NCBI GenBank assembly: GCA_964589815.1
Contig: CAZPUR010000003.1
Span: 42,554-106,553 of the forward strand
DNA from: an uncultured Pseudomonadales bacterium
GTDB taxonomy: Bacteria > Patescibacteriota > Microgenomatia > UBA1400
DNA: 64,000 nucleotides
Direction of reading: 5' to 3'
A model generated the notes under the pieces. It saw nothing but the letters and a program-made list of their open reading frames with translations, ran no database searches and was not told the origin of the DNA. The position numbers were made by a program, and so were the translations under genes. Each line of letters begins with the position of its first letter. Within the stretch, counting starts at the first letter, position 1. This document shows positions 1,717-55,066 of the stretch, piece after piece.

Positions 1717-2757
1717 CTAAACTTCTTTTTTAAGTTGTTTGGGTTTTTCTGTAGTTTCCTCAATGGTTTCTGAGAGAGCTTGAGTTGAAGAGAGTTTCTG
1801 GCCCAAAAGGGAAAAGCTTTGCAGGGCATTGGAAAACTGGTTATAAGCATTATTAATATGTCTACCTAGCACTTGAAGGACACCTTCTGTTTTTTCATAA
1901 TCTTTGTTAATGGCCCTTAACATTGTAAAGACTTGGCGGGAGCGGGCCTCAATTTTCTTACCCTCAAAAGATAAAAGTATCATTTGTAAATGAGCATAAA
2001 GGGTGGTCGGCGAGACCGGATAAACCCGATTTTGGCGGGCAAAATCAGTCAGATCAGGAATATTGGCAATTTCATAATAAACTGGTTCTGAAGGCACATA
2101 CATTAAAGCAAAATCCATCGTACCTTCTTCAGGTAAAATATATTTTTTAGAAATATCCCTAATATGTTTTTTAACATCAGCCGTAAAAGTCCTTTTTATT
2201 TTTATTCTTTCTGTTTTTGTTTCTGCTTTCACCATTCTTTGGAAATTCTCCATAGGAAATTTAGAGTCTATGGGTAAAAGGCCGGCATCGGTTTTTAAAG
2301 CCGCATCCACTTTTTCTCCTGATTTAAAAGAATATTGGAGATGAAAGCTATTCTTAGGAAACATTTGGGAGATCAGGTCCTTTAGCACTTCTTCACCAAT
2401 ATTGCCTCTAAGTTTGGGACTTTTTAGAAATTCTTGCAGGTCTTTCATCGAACGGCCAATTTCGCTCATTTGACCGACTTCTTTACTAACTTGGGCAATA
2501 AAGCGAGCGGCATTATCTAACCTTTCGTTTAAAGTTTTAGTAGATTGATGGAGGGTGTTAGAAATAGTTTTTGATTGATTCTGCAACCCTTTTTGTAGGT
2601 CTGAAGTGCCTTTTTGCAGGGTTTCAATGACTTTTAACAAATTTTCGTCAGATTTAACACTTTCACTTAAACGGCTTAATTTATGATTAATCAACCAGGC
2701 AATCAAACCTAAGCCGGCAATAATTAAAGCAGCGATCAGATATATTTCATTTGTCAT
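1717..2757 (-). CDS. rmuC: DNA recombination protein RmuC
   Basis: ORF-track protein has an N-terminal TM helix, a coiled-coil and a RmuC-like C-terminal nuclease-type domain (MYVPSEPVYYE, YPVSPTTLYAHLQ). ATG at 2757 preferred over the TTG at 2763. Confidence 0.8.
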   Translation of the reverse strand: MTNEIYLIAALIIAGLGLIAWLINHKLSRLSESVKSDENLLKVIETLQKGTSDLQKGLQNQSKTISNTLHQSTKTLNERLDNAARFIAQVSKEVGQMSEIGRSMKDLQEFLKSPKLRGNIGEEVLKDLISQMFPKNSFHLQYSFKSGEKVDAALKTDAGLLPIDSKFPMENFQRMVKAETKTERIKIKRTFTADVKKHIRDISKKYILPEEGTMDFALMYVPSEPVYYEIANIPDLTDFARQNRVYPVSPTTLYAHLQMILLSFEGKKIEARSRQVFTMLRAINKDYEKTEGVLQVLGRHINNAYNQFSNALQSFSLLGQKLSSTQALSETIEETTEKPKQLKKEV

Positions 2758-2783
2758 TAACAATATTATACAATGAGATTAAG

Positions 2784-3122
2784 ATGGTTAAAAGACGACG
2801 TAAAAATTTTTTCCCAGCCTTAATTCTGATATTTTTCTTTTGGACGACCCTAATTCTAATGATTTTTTTTGTTGAACCAAGTTTAGTAAAAGACATCTTA
2901 ATTCCCGGTTTTTATTTACCTTTTTTTCTTAACCTGTTTTTGGCTTTATTTTTTACTTTAGCCATAATTTTTGGTCATTCCAAAAAAGGTTTTTTATGGT
3001 CTTTGGGAGTAATAATTTTTCTAATTCTACGTTTGTTTGATTTGGGAAATATTTTAAATATTATCTTAATAGCCGGTTTAATTTTTGCCCTTGATTATCA
3101 CTTTACCCAACGCCATAGTTAG
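2784..3122 (+). CDS. small integral membrane protein, unknown function
   Basis: ORF 2751..3122 trimmed to the ATG at 2784 (MVKRRRKNFFPAL). Three to four hydrophobic segments. Confidence 0.5.
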   Translation: MVKRRRKNFFPALILIFFFWTTLILMIFFVEPSLVKDILIPGFYLPFFLNLFLALFFTLAIIFGHSKKGFLWSLGVIIFLILRLFDLGNILNIILIAGLIFALDYHFTQRHS

Positions 3123-12624: not shown

Positions 12625-13575
12625 TTACTGATAGACGGTAGTATATTTGCCAGAGACCCAGCCTTGCTTGCCTTCTTCATATTCAATTTTATTCCAGCCA
12701 TTTTCATCTTGTTCTATAAATTTATAAACTTCGCCCGGATGAACTTCTGTAAGCACTGTTTTTTTGTCGCCGCTAGGAGAAGGTTCAGAGCGGACATTTA
12801 ACCATCCCCATTGGTTGTTATCTATTTTGACATAAGGCCTTTCCATTTCATCAGCGGCTTCAGTCGCTTCTTCATCTTCTTCTAATTCGGGAGAAGGAGA
12901 GGGTTTGGGAGAAGGTTTAGGAGAAGCTTTTGTTTCTTCTTCCTTGACTTCCTCTTTTTCTTCCTCTGTCTCTCCACCAGCTGGCGGATTTTCTTCTAAC
13001 TCTTTAGCCAGCTGGACATTGATCATTAACTTATGACCCTTAATAGTTTTAGCTTTAATAGTTTCTTCCTTAAACCCAGGAGAAGAGATAATCAGTAGAT
13101 GTTCGCCTTCTTCAATGCCTTCTAAGGTGAGTGGAGTAAAACCTTTAGGTTCGCCATTTAAAGAAACGACCACACTATCAGGGTTGCTAATAATAGAAAT
13201 TTTGGCTTCGTCTTTTTCAGTAATTGGTTCTAAACTAAGAACATAGCCGCTTGATTCTTCTTCCGTTGCTCCTAGGTTGCGGTTGACCACGGTTAAAATT
13301 CCTGAACTGAGCTTAACTATGCCTTGCCAAGAAATTATTTGGGATTCAGAAGAATCAGGGACGATTTTTAAAGTATATTCTCCTTCTTTTAAGTTTTCGT
13401 CAAAATAAGGGGTTTGACCAATATGGTCTTCGTTTAAAAAAACAGTGGCCTTAGGATTAGAAGTAACCTGCAAAGCCGCCTTCTTTCTACTGGAAATAAA
13501 AGGAAGGTTGCAAGCCGTAAGAATTAAAGCGGCAACCACGAGGCAGGAAAATGAAACAATTCTGAAGAGCTTCAT
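12625..13575 (-). CDS. lipoprotein with PEGA repeats and C-terminal SH3b-like domain
   Basis: Signal peptide plus Cys (LILTAC), two PEGA-like segments, acidic/Pro-rich linker, C-terminal WLNVRSEPS...GWVSGKY. Confidence 0.65.
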   Translation of the reverse strand: MKLFRIVSFSCLVVAALILTACNLPFISSRKKAALQVTSNPKATVFLNEDHIGQTPYFDENLKEGEYTLKIVPDSSESQIISWQGIVKLSSGILTVVNRNLGATEEESSGYVLSLEPITEKDEAKISIISNPDSVVVSLNGEPKGFTPLTLEGIEEGEHLLIISSPGFKEETIKAKTIKGHKLMINVQLAKELEENPPAGGETEEEKEEVKEEETKASPKPSPKPSPSPELEEDEEATEAADEMERPYVKIDNNQWGWLNVRSEPSPSGDKKTVLTEVHPGEVYKFIEQDENGWNKIEYEEGKQGWVSGKYTTVYQ

Positions 13576-13582
13576 TAAATTT

Positions 13583-13611
13583 AATATACCATATTAGAGG
13601 AAAATTAACAA
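13583..13611 (-). promoter_or_regulatory. putative promoter (-35 TTGTTA, 17 nt, TGgTATATT) giving a leaderless or near-leaderless mRNA
   Basis: The -10 ends 7 nt before the ATG at 13575. No SD. Confidence 0.5.
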
Positions 13612-13642
13612 GGAGACACTAATTTGATTTATTAAAGTAATT

Positions 13643-13651
13643 TGTTAAAAT
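13643..13651 (+). promoter_or_regulatory. extended -10 element TGTTAAAAT upstream of the GIY-YIG/tRNA-Cys unit
   Basis: Read directly. Ends 12 nt before the upstream copy of the tRNA 5' segment. Confidence 0.45.
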
Positions 13652-13733
13652 AAGGCTATTAAGTGGCCTAGTGGTCTGGCAAAGCCAGATCTGGCTCTTG
13701 CCAGACGAAGTGATCCTGTTAGAATTAATTTTA

Positions 13734-13985
13734 ATGTTTTATGTTTATGTTTTGAAAAGTCGCACTAATGGAGATATTTACGTTGGTTACTCAAGAGATT
13801 TAAGGACAAGGATTGATGCACACAACAAAGGTAAAGTAAAATCAACTAAAGCTTATAAACCCTGGATACTGGTTTATTATGAAGCTTATAAAGGTAAAAA
13901 AGACGCTACCAAACGAGAGAAAGAGTTAAAATTACACGCGGCGAAGAAATTGTTAATCGAACATCTAAAAGAAAGTCTTAAGTAA
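13734..13985 (+). CDS. small GIY-YIG nuclease-family protein (URI domain only)
   Basis: MFYVYVLKSRTNGDIYVGYSRDLRTRIDAHN has GIY..YIG-type motifs plus a conserved R and KREKELK. The caller's GTG at 13671 lies inside hairpins. Confidence 0.8.
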   Translation: MFYVYVLKSRTNGDIYVGYSRDLRTRIDAHNKGKVKSTKAYKPWILVYYEAYKGKKDATKREKELKLHAAKKLLIEHLKESLK

Positions 13986-13988
13986 CAT

Positions 13989-14061
13989 GGCCTAGTGGCG
14001 AAGAAGCTAACGCAGCTGTCTGCAAAACAGCTATACGCCGGTGCAACTCCGGCCTAGGCCT
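13989..14061 (+). tRNA. tRNA-Cys (anticodon GCA), atypical D- and T-loops
   Basis: Manual cloverleaf: acceptor GGCCTAG/CTAGGCC, anticodon stem GCTGT/ACAGC with loop CTGCAAA, T stem GCCGG/CCGGC. T-loop is TGCAACT (G where U55 is expected) and the D-loop lacks GG. Confidence 0.7.
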
Positions 14062-14104
14062 CTTTTTTATAACCTAAGATAGTGGATAGGATTGTGAATA
14101 GGAC

Positions 14105-14133
14105 TTGACAAAAAATTTTCAAAATGTTATAAA
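14105..14133 (+). promoter_or_regulatory. putative rpoBC promoter (TTGACA, 17 nt, TATAAA)
   Basis: Consensus -35 at 14105-14110 and -10 at 14128-14133. Confidence 0.6.
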
Positions 14134-14238
14134 GTCTTCAAGTCTAAAGAAAGTAGGCATACTTTTTGTATGTCTATTTTTGCAATCTTGAAAACTACCT
14201 TGATCAAGCAATTAATTAACCACTTAAAAAAATAAAAA

Positions 14239-23086: not shown

Positions 23087-25246
23087 ATGCCAGTACAACA
23101 AGACGACTATACCAAAACCAAAGACATCATCCCGATCGATCGGGTGCGTAACATTGGCATTATTGCCCATATTGATGCGGGTAAAACCACCACCACCGAA
23201 CGGATTCTGTATTACACTGGTAAAACATACAAGATAGGCGATATTGACGAGGGCACGACTCAGATGGACTGGATGGAACAGGAAAAGGAAAGAGGCATTA
23301 CTATTCAATCGGCCGCTACCACTTGCTTCTGGCCACCCGCAGACAAAGTGAAAGATAAAAACAAAATTCACCGGATTAACATTATTGATACTCCTGGCCA
23401 CGTTGATTTTACTGCTGAAGTAGAAAGGTCCTTGCGTGTTTTAGATGGTGGGATTGTGGTTTTTGATGCTGAAGAAGGAGTTCAATCCCAATCAGAAACA
23501 GTCTGGCGCCAGGCAGATAAATACAATGTTCCTCGAATTTGTTTTGTTAATAAAATGGACAAGCTGGGGGCGGATTTTATGATGACCATCGGCATGATTA
23601 AAGACAGATTGGGAGCCAATCCAGCCATTATGTCCTTGCCTATTGGGGCAGAGAAAGATTTTAAAGGGATGGTGTTACTTTTAGAAAAAAAAGCCCTTAT
23701 TTGGTTGGGCGATGAGACCGGAGCCAAATATCAAGAAAAAGAGATTCCTCAAGCAATGGAAAAAGAAGTAGAAAAATACCGCAGTTTATTAATCGAACAG
23801 ATTTGTGAACAGGCATCAGATGATAAACTTTTAGAACAATTTCTCGAAGGCAAGGAGCCCTCTTTAACAGAACTTAAAAAAGGTTTACGTCAGGCAACCA
23901 TTGTTTATAAATTGGTGCCTACTTTTTGCGGTTCTTCTTTGCGCAATAAAGGCGTTCAACCTTTACTTGATGCGGTGATAGATTATTTGCCTTCGCCGCT
24001 TGACATCCCGCCTGTTGCTGGCTATAATTCAAAACAGAAAGCGGAAGAAAAACGAGAAGCTAGAGCTGACCAGCCGCTGGCCGCTTTAGCGTTCAAAGTT
24101 CAAACCGACCCCCACGTGGGCCGTTTGACTTATATTCGGATTTATTCTGGCACTTTAACATCTGGCAGTTATGTTTATAATGCCACTAAAGAGAAACAAG
24201 AAAGAGTCGGCCGCCTCTTATTAATGCATGCTAACAAACGGGAAGAAATCAAAAAAGCGGAGGCTGGAGAAATTGTCGCCATTGTAGGCTTAAAAGATAC
24301 GGCTACAGGCGATACTCTGGCTCATGAGGCTAAACCAATTATTTTAGAGTCAATTAGTTTTCCCGAACCAGTGATTTCTTTAGCGATTGAACCCAAAACT
24401 AGGGCTGACCAAGAAAAATTAAGCTATTCTTTAAGAAAACTAGCTGAAGAAGACCCGACTTTTCGAATCAAAAGCGACCGGGAGACTGGTCAAACCGTGA
24501 TTTCCGGCATGGGAGAGCTTCACTTAGAAATTTTAGTTGACCGGATGAAGCGAGAATTTAAAGTTAGCGCCAATACCGGCCAACCCCAAGTAGCCTATAA
24601 AGAGACAATTACTAAGATAGCCGAAGGGGAAGGTAAATACATTCGTCAATCCGGCGGTCGGGGTCAATACGGTCACTGTCTCTTAAGAGTTGAACCTCAA
24701 GAGCGAGGGCAAGGTTATGAATTTATCAATGAGATTAAGGGGGCGGCTATTCCTAGAGAATTTATCCCCGCTATAGGAAAAGGGGTTAAAGAATCGATGG
24801 AAAATGGTGTTTTAGCTGGTTATCCTTTGGTGGACATGAAAGTAGCCGTTTATGACGGTAGTTATCATGAAGTTGATTCTTCAGAGATAGCCTTTAAAAT
24901 TGCTGGTTCTATCGCCCTACAAACAGCAGTAAAACTGGCTAACCTGGTTTTGTTAGAACCAATTATGAAGTTGGAGGTAACCACTCCTGAAGAACACCTG
25001 GGCGAAGTCATCGGCGATTTATCTAGTAAGAGGGCTAAAATTTTAGGCACAGAAACCAAGCATAAAACTAAAATTATTAGTGCTTTAGTCCCCCTAGCCG
25101 AAATGGCTCAATATGCCACCAGATTAAGGACTTTGACTGCCGGTAGAGCCTCATTTTATATGGAACCAAGCCATTATGAGGAAGTTCCGGCTAACATAAC
25201 TGAACAGATAATCAATAAAAATAAAGCTAAAGAAGAAAGTAAATAA
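23087..25246 (+). CDS. fusA: elongation factor G
   Basis: [19 protein letters not shown] and DTPGHVDF G-domain motifs; 719 aa. Confidence 0.97.
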
Positions 25247-28262: not shown

Positions 28263-28609
28263 ATATCAATCAAGTTATTAAAAAACCACTAATTACAGAA
28301 AAAGCGATGGCGTTAGCTAAGGAGGGTAAGTATACTTTTATAGTTGATATCAAGGCTGATAAAAAAAAGGTTAAACAAGCCCTAGGAGTTTTATTTGGCG
28401 TTCAGGCAATTAAGGTTAATCTTTTAAAATATAAGGGAAAGAAAAAAAGAGCTTTTCGAATGCGCAAATTGATTAAAAAATCAGATTATAAAAAAGCAAT
28501 AGTGCAACTGAAAGAGGGTCAAAAAATAGAATTTTTTGAAGAAATTTCTGGAAAGAAGAAGGATAAATCCCGGCGCAAAGGCCGAGGATCGTCCTCTGGA
28601 CGAAAATGA
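28259..28609 (+). CDS. rplW: 50S ribosomal protein L23 (uL23)
   Basis: [11 protein letters not shown] start. ATGA overlaps on both sides. Confidence 0.93.
28587..28605 (+). repeat. GATCGTCCTCTGGACGAAA hairpin element forming the rplW tail and abutting the rplB ATG
   Basis: TCGTCC-TCT-GGACGA stem. Same core as 44211-44230 and 55047-55066. Confidence 0.7.
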
Positions 28610-32940: not shown

Positions 32941-33091
32941 GTGTTAATTAAGTAGTTGATTAACTCGTTAACGCTCGTGTTAATTAGGTAGTTAATTAAC
33001 TAGTTTAATATAGTCCTATCAATCAACATGATCCGCCAGCTGGCGGAGAATAAATTAACTATCAATAAACAACTTAATCAACTAAAAAACA
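32941..33091 (+). repeat. foldback spacer, TTAAGTAGTTGATTA family, full copy
   Basis: 33015-33089 is identical over 75 nt to 41177-41251. TAGTTGATTA (32952-61) pairs with TAATCAACTA (33075-84). Carries palindrome TCCGCCAGCTGGCGGA (33032-47). Confidence 0.85.
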
Positions 33092-35114: not shown

Positions 35115-35528
35115 ATGATTAAACGTTACAAGCATAAAACGCTTAAAAGAAAAATCAAGATCAGGGCCAAACTTTTGAAAATAGGTCGAAGACCCAGGTT
35201 ATCTGTTTTTCGTTCTAATAAATATATTTATGCCCAGATTATTGATGACCAAAAAGGAAAAACACTGGCGGCGGCTAGTGAAAAAGACATAAAAGAAAAC
35301 TCCAATCCGCCAGCTGGCGGACCAAAACTCCCCCGACCTCGCCTCGGCTCGGCCGAGGGCGGGCAAAACTCCAAGATTAACAGAGCGTTTCAGGTGGGTC
35401 AAATCTTGGCCAAGAAAGCCTTAAAAATAAAGATTAAAAAAGTATATTTTGACCGCGGCGGCTATAAATATCATGGCCTGATTAAAGCCTTAGCTGAGGG
35501 TGCCAGAAAAGGAGGACTGGAGTTCTAA
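35115..35528 (+). CDS. rplR: 50S ribosomal protein L18 (uL18) with a 23-codon GC-rich insertion
   Basis: RLSVFRSNKYIYAQIIDD and GGYKYHG motifs. Insertion NPPAGGPKLPRPRLGSAEGGQNS. Confidence 0.93.
   Translation: MIKRYKHKTLKRKIKIRAKLLKIGRRPRLSVFRSNKYIYAQIIDDQKGKTLAAASEKDIKENSNPPAGGPKLPRPRLGSAEGGQNSKINRAFQVGQILAKKALKIKIKKVYFDRGGYKYHGLIKALAEGARKGGLEF
35295..35371 (+). repeat. two adjacent GC palindromes, each bounded by the 8-nt direct repeat AAAACTCC (three copies)
   Basis: AAAACTCC at 35295, 35323 and 35364. Cores TCCGCCAGCTGGCGGA (35305-20) and CCCGACCTCGCCTCGGCTCGGCCGAGGGCGGG. Periods 28 + 41 = 69 nt. Confidence 0.85.
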
Positions 35529-41119: not shown

Positions 41120-41253
41120 ATATAGTTATTAAGTGGTTGATTAGCTCGCAACGCTCGCGTTAATTAGGTAGTTAATCCTATCAATCAACATGATCCGCCA
41201 GCTGGCGGAGAATAAATTAACTATCAATAAACAACTTAATCAACTAAAAAATC
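41120..41253 (+). repeat. foldback spacer, TTAAGTAGTTGATTA family, second full copy
   Basis: 41177-41251 is identical to 33015-33089. Lacks ~18 nt present in the other copy. Ends at the rpmJ ATG. Confidence 0.85.
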
Positions 41254-44197: not shown

Positions 44198-44200
44198 AAT

Positions 44201-44230
44201 CAGCCAGAGGCTGATCGTCCTTTGGACGAA
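44201..44230 (+). repeat. double-hairpin element CAGCCAGAGGCTGATCGTCCTTTGGACGAA abutting the rplM ATG
   Basis: CAGCC-AGAG-GCTG and TCGTCC-TTTG-GACGA. Near-identical copy at 55036-55066. Confidence 0.8.
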
Positions 44231-45304: not shown

Positions 45305-45565
45305 TTATCTTCCAATATTCTGGAGTAAATCATTAAACATATCTTCTTGCTGTTTACTGGTTTCCGAAACCGAAGAAACATTTTCCAAAATTTGCTGCGT
45401 ATTTTCCAGTTGTTTTTTCAAAGCCGGCAACACTTGGACATAAAAACCCCAAACACTGATGATAATGCTCAGAAAAATTAAAATTTTAAAAACCACGGCC
45501 AAGCGATACTGCCAGATTTGAATCTTCAACCACTTTTGCAGTAATTCCTCAGTTTCCAGCTCCAT
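45305..45565 (-). CDS. small membrane-anchored hypothetical protein
   Basis: ATG at 45565 is preceded by GAGGAGG. One TM segment plus a coiled region. The caller's extra 8 codons are repeat-encoded. Confidence 0.5.
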   Translation of the reverse strand: MELETEELLQKWLKIQIWQYRLAVVFKILIFLSIIISVWGFYVQVLPALKKQLENTQQILENVSSVSETSKQQEDMFNDLLQNIGR

Positions 45566-45577
45566 TTTTCCTCCTCT

Positions 45578-45602
45578 GTCATTCCGCACCTGATGCGGAA
45601 TC
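45578..45602. repeat. GTCATTCCGCA-CCTGA-TGCGGAATC hairpin repeat
   Basis: 8-bp stem; GTCATTCC family. Confidence 0.75.
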
Positions 45603-45648
45603 TATACAAATAAAATCCTCTAATAATAAAATAACCACTACCATTATT

Positions 45649-45657
45649 TGATATAAT
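45649..45657 (+). promoter_or_regulatory. extended -10 element TGATATAAT upstream of the GIY-YIG/tRNA-Pro unit
   Basis: Read directly. Confidence 0.45.
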
Positions 45658-45719
45658 AGAAGTATTGTCAATATTTTCGGGCGCCGCCCAGAGGGCTCTG
45701 CCCGGCGGGGCGTGCAAAT

Positions 45720-46001
45720 ATGGCATTTGTTTATTTATCAAAAAGCTTAAAAGATAATAAGAAATATATTGGTTCAACAAATAATTTACAAAGACGTATA
45801 AAAGAACATCAAAATGGTTTAGTAAGGTCAACAAAATATAGACGGCCGTTAATTTTACTAGGTTATCAGATTTGCAACGATGTTAAAGAAGCAGCTTTTT
45901 TGGAAAGAAAATATAAAAGAAGCCATAATGTTCTTGGGAGAGCAATACAAAGAGGGAGTTTTAGATTAGTTCATTCGGGGCGTGGTGCAGTGGTAGCATA
46001 G
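45720..46001 (+). CDS. small GIY-YIG nuclease-family protein; 3' end of the ORF runs into tRNA-Pro
   Basis: MAFVYLSKSLKDNKKYIGSTNNLQRRIKEHQNG... GIY-YIG-like core. The last ~9 codons overlap the tRNA, so the true stop and length are uncertain. Confidence 0.7.
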   Translation: MAFVYLSKSLKDNKKYIGSTNNLQRRIKEHQNGLVRSTKYRRPLILLGYQICNDVKEAAFLERKYKRSHNVLGRAIQRGSFRLVHSGRGAVVA

Positions 46002-46046
46002 GCGCATGGGGTGCGTCTGGCCCCGGTTCAATCCCGGGCGCCCCGA
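45976..46046 (+). tRNA. tRNA-Pro (anticodon GGG)
   Basis: Manual cloverleaf: acceptor CGGGGCG/CGCCCCG, D-loop AGTGGTA, anticodon stem GGCGC/GCGTC with loop ATGGGGT, T arm CCCGG-TTCAATC-CCGGG, discriminator A. Confidence 0.85.
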
Positions 46047-46052
46047 CAAAGA

Positions 46053-46529
46053 TTATATTATACCTAGAATAGGTAATTTAAACTTCTTCTTTTTCCACCT
46101 CAAATAAAGTTGAATCGTTTCCCAATGGTCAAAGGCCACTTTTTCTTTAGAAGGAATTTTATCCAAGTCAAACCACTTCACTTCACTTACTTCTTTATCT
46201 GGTTGACCTATCTTTTTAATAGCCTTGACTAAGTAGACGAAATCCACATTTTGCCAATCTTCTCCTTCTCTATAAGGCGTGTCCACGATTCTAAATAATT
46301 TGATTATTTTACCGCTATAACCGCTTTCTTCTAGGAACTCCCTCAAAACCCCTTCTTTTATTGTTTCATTTTGTTCTAAAAAACCACCGGGAAAAGCGTA
46401 TTTTCCGCCTTCTCTTAAATGATTAGCTCTTTTAATTAACAGCAGCTTATTATTGTTGACACAAAGAGCGTCAAAAACCACATGTCTTAGATGTGCCTTT
46501 GTTCCTGATTCAAACTGACAAGTAATCAT
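46053..46529 (-). CDS. NUDIX-family hydrolase
   Basis: Nudix box GGFLEQNETIKEGVLREFLEESGY. Confidence 0.85.
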   Translation of the reverse strand: MITCQFESGTKAHLRHVVFDALCVNNNKLLLIKRANHLREGGKYAFPGGFLEQNETIKEGVLREFLEESGYSGKIIKLFRIVDTPYREGEDWQNVDFVYLVKAIKKIGQPDKEVSEVKWFDLDKIPSKEKVAFDHWETIQLYLRWKKKKFKLPILGII

Positions 46530-54993: not shown

Positions 54994-55035
54994 CTTGTAA
55001 TTTTTCCTTCTTTATGTTTCAATTTAATTAATTAT

Positions 55036-55066
55036 CAGCCAAAGGCTGATCGTCCTTTGGACGAAA
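55036..55066 (+). repeat. double-hairpin element CAGCCAAAGGCTGATCGTCCTTTGGACGAAAT upstream of recA
   Basis: Differs from 44201-44230 at one position in the first loop. Confidence 0.8.

Follow-up and report, generated by a model that had tools for sequence, protein, structure and literature searches.

How can a transfer RNA (tRNA) gene hold a complete protein-coding gene between its promoter and its body and keep its tRNA? The question is raised by a 64,000-nucleotide stretch of contig CAZPUR010000003.1 (hereafter, the window), in which the gene of an 83-residue GIY-YIG nuclease separates a tRNA promoter from an intact tRNA-Cys(GCA) gene (locus 1), and a second GIY-YIG gene precedes a tRNA-Pro(GGG) gene (locus 2). 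Comparison with related genomes makes it likely, in our view, that each locus is a selfish cassette of about 300 bp, homing-like in behavior, which carries a minimal GIY-YIG nuclease and sits in the 5' part of a tRNA gene.

With 37% GC, the window is AT-rich, and its closest matches are metagenome bins of the Patescibacteria, or Candidate Phyla Radiation (CPR), with Candidatus Beckwithbacteria as the nearest named relatives. ARAGORN finds two tRNAs only, tRNA-Cys(GCA) at 13989-14062 and tRNA-Pro(GGG) at 45976-46047, and a six-frame phmmer scan finds two GIY-YIG open reading frames (ORFs) only, at 13734-13985 and 45720-46001, each being directly 5' of one tRNA on the same strand (2/2). The original prediction, made from the letters of the window, had described both loci as nuclease cassettes inserted in tRNA genes. 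All elements that it named are present (the 11-mer pair, the hairpins, the -10 element, and the 9-mer pair), confirming the observation, and its interpretation holds in outline but errs on several points. The Rfam comparison that it called for shows two good tRNAs, with 58 bits (E 7e-12) for tRNA-Cys and 52.4 bits for tRNA-Pro. A scan of the whole window at the gathering threshold reports no Rfam family, although both tRNAs exceed the tRNA gathering score locally, and we treat this empty result as a filter effect and not as evidence against the tRNAs.

The two loci and their cassette-free alleles

At locus 1, a consensus scan places the original promoter of the tRNA-Cys gene at 13624-13651, with the -35 element TTGATT at 13624, a 16-nt spacer, and the extended -10 element TGTTAAAAT at 13643-13651, ending 12 nt before an 11-nt repeat. 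The parts of both loci described here lie on the plus strand unless stated otherwise. The first copy of the repeat (13664-13674) corresponds to tRNA positions -1 to 10 and is identical to 13988-13998, the beginning of the intact gene; the 11-mer, TGGCCTAGTGG, occurs in the 64 kb only at 13664 and 13988 and is matched by 0/200 shuffles. This 5' remnant, or stump, is split between tRNA positions 10 and 11 by two hairpins of 15 and 16 nt with nearly complementary loops, TCTGGC-AAA-GCCAGA (13675-13689) and TCTGGC-TCTT-GCCAGA (13690-13705), behind which CGAAG (13706-13710) continues the stump with positions 11-15, as read from the sequence and by comparison with the related loci L102 and L103. The leader after CGAAG may be decayed tRNA sequence. 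The nuclease gene (83 codons plus stop) follows at 13734-13985 and ends 3 nt before the tRNA. Gene callers lengthen it to a GTG at 13671 (104 residues), but 13734 is the real start because all homologues begin at MFYVY. In total, the cassette comprises 13675-13998, which is 324 bp with a single ORF.

The neighboring gene at 12625-13575, on the minus strand, encodes a PEGA-domain protein with many homologues. Two loci with a PEGA protein 62% identical to it, L083 and L084, keep the gene order PEGA, tRNA-Cys, rpoB, and the ORF is absent. Their promoter block, which is homologous to window 13628-13663 and in L083 stands directly 5' of the tRNA, abuts the tRNA exactly at the site of the window's 5' stump, so that 13664-13674 sits where the tRNA starts in the empty allele. 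When 13675-13998 is removed, the window aligns colinearly with the L083 allele over the whole intergenic region from PEGA to rpoB. These comparisons rest on pairwise and reconstruction alignments; a three-way MAFFT alignment, which set the promoter against the 3' end of the ORF, was discarded. The tRNA-Cys locus is likewise empty in L085-L088.

An empty allele is also found for locus 2. In L109, where the NUDIX neighbor is 77% identical and rpsI and rplM lie on the other side, the promoter block is joined directly to tRNA-Pro(GGG). The block, TTATTTGATATAATAGA[A/G]GTATTGTCAATA, is shared by L109 and the window, where it occupies 45643-45677 with TATAAT at 45652-45657; its conservation in the empty allele rules out a decayed D arm as an explanation of this upstream region. 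The insertion into a tRNA gene is thereby borne out by uninterrupted promoter-tRNA alleles for both loci, and the presence or absence of the gene at the same site in related genomes is a trait of classical GIY-YIG homing endonucleases.

Behind the locus 2 promoter, the tRNA-Pro-like fragments CGGGCG (45678-45683) and CGGGGCGTG (45706-45714) surround a GC hairpin, whose core at 45682-45708 is common to the relative L091; by sequence comparison it is ambiguous which of the two fragments would be the true stump. The second nuclease gene (45720-46001, 93 residues), recognized by Pfam and phmmer, has its stop codon inside the tRNA, running 26 nt into tRNA-Pro(GGG), and its relative in L091 likewise reads into its tRNA-Pro. 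CGGGGCGTG occurs in the window at 45706 and 45976 only, but this 9-mer repeat is weaker evidence than that of locus 1, being matched by 1.5% of shuffles and lying partly in a hairpin flank conserved in L091. The claim that locus 2 has the same architecture stands for the arrangement of ORF and tRNA, whereas its 9-nt repeat is, from L091 and L109, probably not equivalent to the 11-nt repeat. As a separate observation, L109 encodes a 244-residue HNH_repeat protein at about 2276-3010 (minus strand of the locus), a few nucleotides after tRNA-Pro and on the same strand, so that another nuclease family occupies the other side of the same tRNA-Pro.

Recurrence of the cassette and remains of split tRNA genes

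Relatives were taken from a scan with one genome per species, which yielded 80 loci with 86 ORFs (more than 597 hits overall). A tRNA or transfer-messenger RNA (tmRNA) starts at most 160 nt downstream on the same strand, usually after 3-30 nt, in 35/86 of these ORFs; by a rough estimate, the chance expectation is below 1%. The association that had been predicted from two loci is thus general, and the flanking repeat of the tRNA 5' end is found in 20/35 loci tested. Three findings had been named that would speak against the original prediction, namely no enrichment of GIY-YIG genes next to tRNAs, no flanking repeat at other copies, or the same ORF at non-tRNA loci with conserved synteny; all three were examined, and none of them refutes it. 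The nearest relatives of the locus 1 protein are almost always partnered with tRNA-Cys, and other lineages are found at Leu, Ile, Val, Ala, Glu, Ser, Tyr, Asp, Met, Lys, Gly, and Pro tRNAs.

The 5' stumps in the 20/35 loci are exact repeats of 9-36 nt upstream of the ORF, starting at tRNA position -4 to +2, with lengths that shuffles rarely or never reach, and gapped alignments often extend the upstream tRNA copy to position 38-50. In L102, whose protein is 81% identical to that of locus 1, the order is a stump of positions 1-24, hairpins, CAAAAC (positions 35-40), and the ATG. L103 has a stump of positions 1-34, a hairpin pair, repeated hairpin-CAAAAC units, and the ATG. In the locus 1 lineage the ATG of the ORF thus comes just after tRNA position ~40, directly behind the anticodon arm of the tRNA copy that was disrupted; judged by these relatives, the copies in the window are eroded forms of better-preserved cassettes. 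The Val/Ala lineage shows a stump of exactly positions 1-12 (GGGGCNGTTAGC) in five loci, with the break at 12/13. Over all lineages, the junctions fall either within the D arm (9-24) or within or past the anticodon loop (34-50), and some lineages break at 34/35. A fixed target near tRNA position 10, as first proposed, does not agree with these junctions; position 10 is the site of the hairpins in this copy.

Several relatives also retain a 3' stump (L002, L003, L006, L008, L009, L012, L029 with tRNA-Glu, and L049 with tRNA-Met). Here, a spacer and a hairpin pair come after the intact tRNA, and behind them lies the 3' part of a tRNA from about position 35 to the end. In L002, the 3' stump is identical to the intact tRNA (42/42). 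In L006 and L009, the acceptor halves of the 5' and 3' stumps pair 7/7 with each other and only 4-5/7 with the intact tRNA, and the T-stem differences between stumps and intact tRNA are likewise compensatory. The stumps pair with each other and not with the intact tRNA, and therefore they are the remains of a functional resident gene that was split near the anticodon. The tRNA-Cys type of the L006 stumps is the one that L001 and L002 carry intact at their syntenic UbiA-PEGA locus. To judge from these sequences, a complete foreign tRNA allele has replaced the resident one in L006 and L009. The idea that the tRNA is regenerated by duplication of its 5' end holds insofar as the 5' copy is present, but it does not account for the 3' stumps and the replacement of whole tRNAs in these relatives.

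Cassettes within one genome are mutually distant and generally closer to cassettes that other genomes have at the same tRNA or a similar one. The nearest neighbor of a cassette has the same tRNA partner in 15/40 cases, with switches such as Cys to Ile and Val to Ala. This lineage pattern fits allele-to-allele spread and not bursts within a genome.

Two further observations concern the junctions. L089 and L090 (~2300-2440) contain a promoter, a 15-nt stump of one tRNA-Cys type, the hairpin CCCCGACATTCGTCGGGG, a pseudo anticodon arm, and, at the end, an intact tRNA-Cys of another type without an ORF; here, a tRNA was apparently replaced and the nuclease gene lost afterwards. Short tandem arrays of tRNA fragments and hairpin modules are seen in L004 (2826-2960, with a hairpin in place of the T arm and three repeats), L103 (1400-1500, with the repeated unit of hairpin and CAAAAC), and L005 (2930-3090), which suggests slippage or repeated recombination at cassette junctions.

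The nuclease, the hairpins, and other stable-RNA genes

Both window proteins match the GIY-YIG profile (Pfam ID PF01541) over its gathering score, with E 1.4e-17 for locus 1 and 2.5e-14 for locus 2, and represent different lineages (phmmer E 2e-9 to each other). The AlphaFold model of the 83-residue protein (predicted local distance difference test score, 90.6) has the order beta-beta-alpha-beta-alpha. Y5, Y16, R26, H30, and E62 are invariant in 35 sequences, and by alignment with SLX1 we take E62 to be the catalytic, metal-binding Glu. The locus 2 protein has Gln at the YYE position; a dead active site was considered on this account and dropped, the later invariant Glu (E62) being present.

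The best PDB sequence matches are 1zg2 (E 1.3e-13), 1ywl (1.7e-10), SLX1 (1.8e-5), and I-TevI (8e-4), and Foldseek gives the same order with 1zg2, SLX1 (template modeling score, 0.66), and I-TevI (0.44). The nearest solved proteins are the UPF0213 proteins BH0048 and EF2693, followed by the SLX1 nuclease domain, with I-TevI being distant. By sequence and fold, the nuclease is therefore like the UPF0213/YhbQ/YazA/SLX1 family, and as a bare catalytic domain of this type it is not a classical homing endonuclease. Unlike SLX1, which has a C-terminal zinc finger and needs SLX4, the 83-residue protein ends after the catalytic domain and one helix and has no such finger; a separate DNA-binding domain is also absent, the catalytic fold spanning the whole protein. 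The match to TIGR01453 covers profile positions 4-39 only and is below the cutoff. Comparison of the locus 1 protein with L102 and L103 gives a ratio of nonsynonymous to synonymous substitutions (dN/dS) of 0.11-0.17, at dS of about 1, and the nuclease is therefore under purifying selection.

The protein family is large, with 8008 clusters at E<=1e-10 in a library at 50% identity, mostly of 80-130 residues. The PADLOC defense models give no significant match (best E 0.0015 over a short stretch), a scan of the window nuclease against a phage-family library gives nothing useful, and viral contigs yield only 4 hits, two of them beside a tRNA. UPF0213/YhbQ homologues are single-copy genes in many ordinary bacteria. 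Unlike these bacterial members, the genes described here are multicopy, polymorphic, and tied to stable-RNA genes. The UPF0213/YhbQ family is named in an earlier study (PMC7017083).

The 15-nt GC hairpins are, from their distribution, best described as modules traveling with the cassette. In relatives, one or two of them (TCNNGC-loop-GCNNGA) are precisely inserted in the D loop or the anticodon (34/35). The window has 10 such modules against 0.32 expected, including three adjacent pairs. They resemble repetitive elements in being short, GC-rich, dispersed, often paired, and inserted as 15 or 30 nt without target duplication. Hairpin pairs stand at both junctions in some relatives, whereas in the window the tRNA side is bare.

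Hairpins of the same 15-nt design with the stems TCAGCC and TCGTCC occur at window 44200-44229 and 55035-55064 (two adjacent pairs) and at 28589-28603 (single) with no nuclease gene nearby. These solo hairpins precede start codons by 1-2 nt (28589 and 44200) or ~28 nt (55035), the genes being an apparent rplM, an apparent rplB, and one more. TCTGGC at 24146 and 24161 was considered as a hairpin pair and rejected, since it is coding sequence without hairpins, probably of EF-G by operon position. A perfect 16-nt palindrome, TCCGCCAGCTGGCGGA, is found three times in the window (33032-33047, 35306-35321, and 41194-41209), two copies being in near-identical leaders of ~100 nt before two genes of the ribosomal-protein region and one inside an ORF; it also appears in several unrelated CPR loci, for example, right after tmRNA in L055.

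Related ORFs without a tRNA partner are found at other stable-RNA genes. By Rfam, the ORF in L016 lies directly before RNase P RNA and that in L035 (2501-2755) inside a 16S rRNA gene, where it is enclosed by a 21-nt stem. In L055 the ORF precedes tmRNA, and in L056, L079, and L080, judged by the motif GGAGGAAAGTCCG, it is beside or inside RNase P RNA. The association of the family is thus with stable-RNA genes in general. Most of the distant relatives have inverted repeats of 13-30 nt on either side, in which a motif is conserved (ACCCCCACAC...ORF...GTGTGGGGGT).

Some features of these relatives are recorded here in their own right. The ACCCCCACAC/GTGTGGGGGT architecture is seen in L018, L024, L025, L031, L037, L046, L048, L053-L056, L066, L068, L071, L073, L080, and others, and the right arm GTGTGGGGGT, often just before the ATG of the next gene, could serve as a ribosome-binding site. 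ORFs at stable-RNA genes stand within perfect stems as long as 30 nt (in L016, exact runs of 13 nt); such stems would be RNase III-type substrates, as in intervening sequences, and the RNase P RNA stem around the ORF resembles a lengthened P3 helix. Relatives of the locus 2 protein in L092 (1000-1400) and L093 (500-830) are flanked by CCCCGCACTTT/AAAGTGCGGGG inverted repeats, and these cassettes seem to interrupt a protein-coding gene, the downstream part of which resembles the C-terminus of a tyrosine recombinase.

At locus 1, a second promoter-like site (13698-13725; TTGCCA, 16 nt, and TAGAAT with TG; 10/12 consensus matches) ends 8 nt before the ATG, and this putative promoter could give a nearly leaderless nuclease mRNA. 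The consensus scan finds no promoter-like site close upstream of tRNA-Cys, two near the ORF start, and one weak site (9/12) within the ORF at 13813-13842. Because only 3 nt separate the stop codon from the tRNA and no promoter-like site is close upstream of the tRNA, the most parsimonious inference is that tRNA-Cys would be co-transcribed with the nuclease gene and freed by RNase P. The predicted fold of the locus 1 transcript is no better than that of shuffles (z = -1.28) and serves as an illustration only, showing that the stump can compete for the 3' strand of the acceptor.

The tRNA-Cys had been described as odd, and the oddity is real, with the T-loop TGCAACT and a D-loop without GG (the A18/G55 variant of a covariation table). 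The D-loop GG is absent in 5/5 tRNA-Cys genes with G instead of U at T-loop position 55 (window, L002, L083, L088, and L102) and present in all TTC-type genes, which looks like covariation of the G18/U55 tertiary contact, independent of the cassette. The same variant is present in the cassette-free alleles L083 and L088; with the perfect covariation, it is therefore a feature of the lineage and not a result of the insertion.

Proposed spread of the cassette and its meaning for CPR tRNA genes

We propose that, upon insertion, the resident promoter stayed behind upstream together with a dead stump, the first 10-15 nt of the tRNA, and that transcription across the nuclease gene would reach the complete tRNA after the stop codon, which RNase P would then cut out. 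To spread, the nuclease would break a cassette-free tRNA gene, and the break would be repaired from a cassette-bearing copy, with the tRNA-derived flanks acting as homology arms and the cassette, often with its intact tRNA, being copied in. Later deletion between the repeated tRNA segments and point decay would shorten the stumps. Stumps would arise because a tRNA tolerates no unspliced insert, so that only events leaving or bringing one intact tRNA survive.

Several points weigh against this homing-like cassette. The 83-residue protein is a catalytic domain only, without a DNA-binding module, and its closest kin are structure-selective SLX1 and UPF0213 proteins and not sequence-specific homing enzymes. 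The stumps of L002 and L003 do not differ from the intact tRNA, and a nuclease recognizing the tRNA sequence would cut its own copy there. Simple homing requires neither the variable junctions nor the hairpin modules that stand at them. Precise deletion between direct repeats could also produce the empty alleles, and therefore presence and absence alone are not proof of gain.

The hairpins raise the question of whether the loci descend from a transposon-like element, with the hairpins or the inverted repeats ACCCCCACAC.../...GTGTGGGGGT as cis-acting ends cut by the SLX1-like nuclease, the solo hairpin pairs as non-autonomous derivatives or footprints, and the loop-coding parts of stable-RNA genes as the target. 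We judge this unlikely. It would explain the hairpin pairs at both junctions of a split resident tRNA in L003, L006, L008, L009, and L012, whose loops are complementary, indicating therefore two units in inverted orientation; their precise insertion in the D, anticodon, or T loop; the inverted repeats around most of the distant relatives; and the closeness of the nuclease to the structure-selective SLX1. Hairpins with the stems TCTGGC, TCTCGC, TCCTGC, and TCCCGC also recur with the cassette lineage in many genomes, the solo hairpins of the window being of other types. The window loci, however, have hairpins upstream only, the duplications of 9 to ~50 nt are unlike a transposase footprint, and the copies within one genome are highly diverged and therefore give no sign of recent transposition within the genome. 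We know of no transposase with a lone GIY-YIG domain. A DNA transposon with a target duplication of fixed length was rejected, as the repeats vary (9-36 nt exact, to ~50 nt gapped). It is possible, if rather unlikely, that the hairpins and the minimal SLX1-like nuclease together form a previously unrecognized, structure-guided mobile element of CPR stable-RNA genes. The nuclease would then recognize extruded hairpins or cruciforms and not a sequence, insertion would take place where the genes for tRNA, tmRNA, RNase P RNA, and rRNA encode loops, and solo hairpin pairs would be non-autonomous offspring. By disabling the resident tRNA and supplying the only working copy, such an element would secure its retention, a form of genetic addiction.

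A benefit to the host is very unlikely to explain the arrangement. In such an operon, the nuclease would be a cellular factor co-expressed with tRNAs, and the stump and hairpins would form a regulatory or processing leader. The strong purifying selection, the pairing with tRNA-Cys that has persisted at a syntenic locus in deeply diverged genomes, and the single-copy UPF0213/YhbQ genes of many ordinary bacteria are consistent with it, but the cassette is absent at the same site in close relatives, several diverged copies per genome lie beside many tRNAs and inside 16S rRNA and RNase P RNA genes, the stumps decay to an extent that varies by locus, and resident tRNA alleles are disrupted and replaced. 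We give still less credence to a remnant of an ORF-bearing group I intron or of another tRNA-targeting element, such as an integrase-type island. Group I introns, the subject of a study on Patescibacteria tRNA introns, are common in the anticodon loops of these tRNAs, mainly at 35/36 (PMC13011429), and many hairpin insertions lie at 34/35 or 35/36. Against it, the Intron_gpI model gives no hit at E up to 10 in 13500-14200 or 45550-46150, the non-coding part of the cassette is shorter than 100 nt, a full tRNA and not a 3' exon lies downstream, and the 324-bp insert has no integrase and duplicates the 5' and not the 3' end of the tRNA.

The homing-like cassette, which we prefer, shares features with several known systems. 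SegB, a GIY-YIG enzyme of phage T4, is far longer than 83 residues and has a separate DNA-binding part. It recognizes a conserved motif of tRNA genes and spreads together with neighboring tRNA genes by intron-less homing through break repair (PMC2330249), and it is a precedent for the targeting of tRNA genes, with co-conversion of neighbors, by a GIY-YIG enzyme. As here, its gene stands at tRNA genes, but it lies between complete phage tRNA genes without stumps or hairpin modules, whereas the present enzyme is an 83-residue UPF0213/SLX1-type protein of a cellular genome.

The mobile endonuclease ORF in atp6 of Allomyces brings a replacement copy of part of the gene it invades. As in such fungal mitochondrial endonuclease ORFs, an unspliced insert is tolerated at our loci through a supplied intact copy and the displaced piece becomes a pseudogene fragment; theirs are organelle protein genes with a replaced 3' end, and ours are bacterial genes for tRNA and other stable RNAs, with either a 5' stump or stumps on both sides. 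Extra gene copies in truncated form have been described from fungal mitochondrial DNA (PMC4162613). The double-hairpin elements of Allomyces mitochondrial DNA insert without target-site duplication, according to the accounts of Paquin et al. (2000) in PMC2800124 and PMC3787672. From what those accounts relate, they are likewise paired, adjacent, short, GC-rich, and dispersed, lack target duplication, and also occur in RNA genes. They belong to another kingdom, and some of the hairpins described here accompany a nuclease cassette and mark its junctions, so the resemblance would be one of kind only, and homology is not expected.

Of the same phylum and protein kind are the GIY-YIG ORFs in non-intron insertions of CPR rRNA genes (PMC11270868), for which homing was doubted and tRNA is not mentioned. 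They too lie in a stable-RNA gene without a ribozyme, L035 being such a case, but the tRNA loci, unlike those insertions, give evidence of replacement and of presence and absence. Full-text literature searches combining GIY-YIG, tRNA, and Patescibacteria or CPR found no description of such tRNA-gene cassettes.

Selfish endonuclease genes in essential genes are usually tolerated because an intron or intein removes them. We regard the present element as a free-standing homing-type endonuclease with an unusual mode of survival in tRNA genes, where the unspliced cassette survives since it keeps an intact copy of the tRNA attached. In highly reduced genomes, essential tRNAs would then depend on transcription through a selfish gene, and the cassette may drive the horizontal replacement of tRNA alleles. 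The finding bears on the annotation of CPR tRNA genes, with their stumps, over-long ORF calls, and hybrid alleles, and it offers a testable substrate for the uncharacterized UPF0213/YhbQ nucleases.

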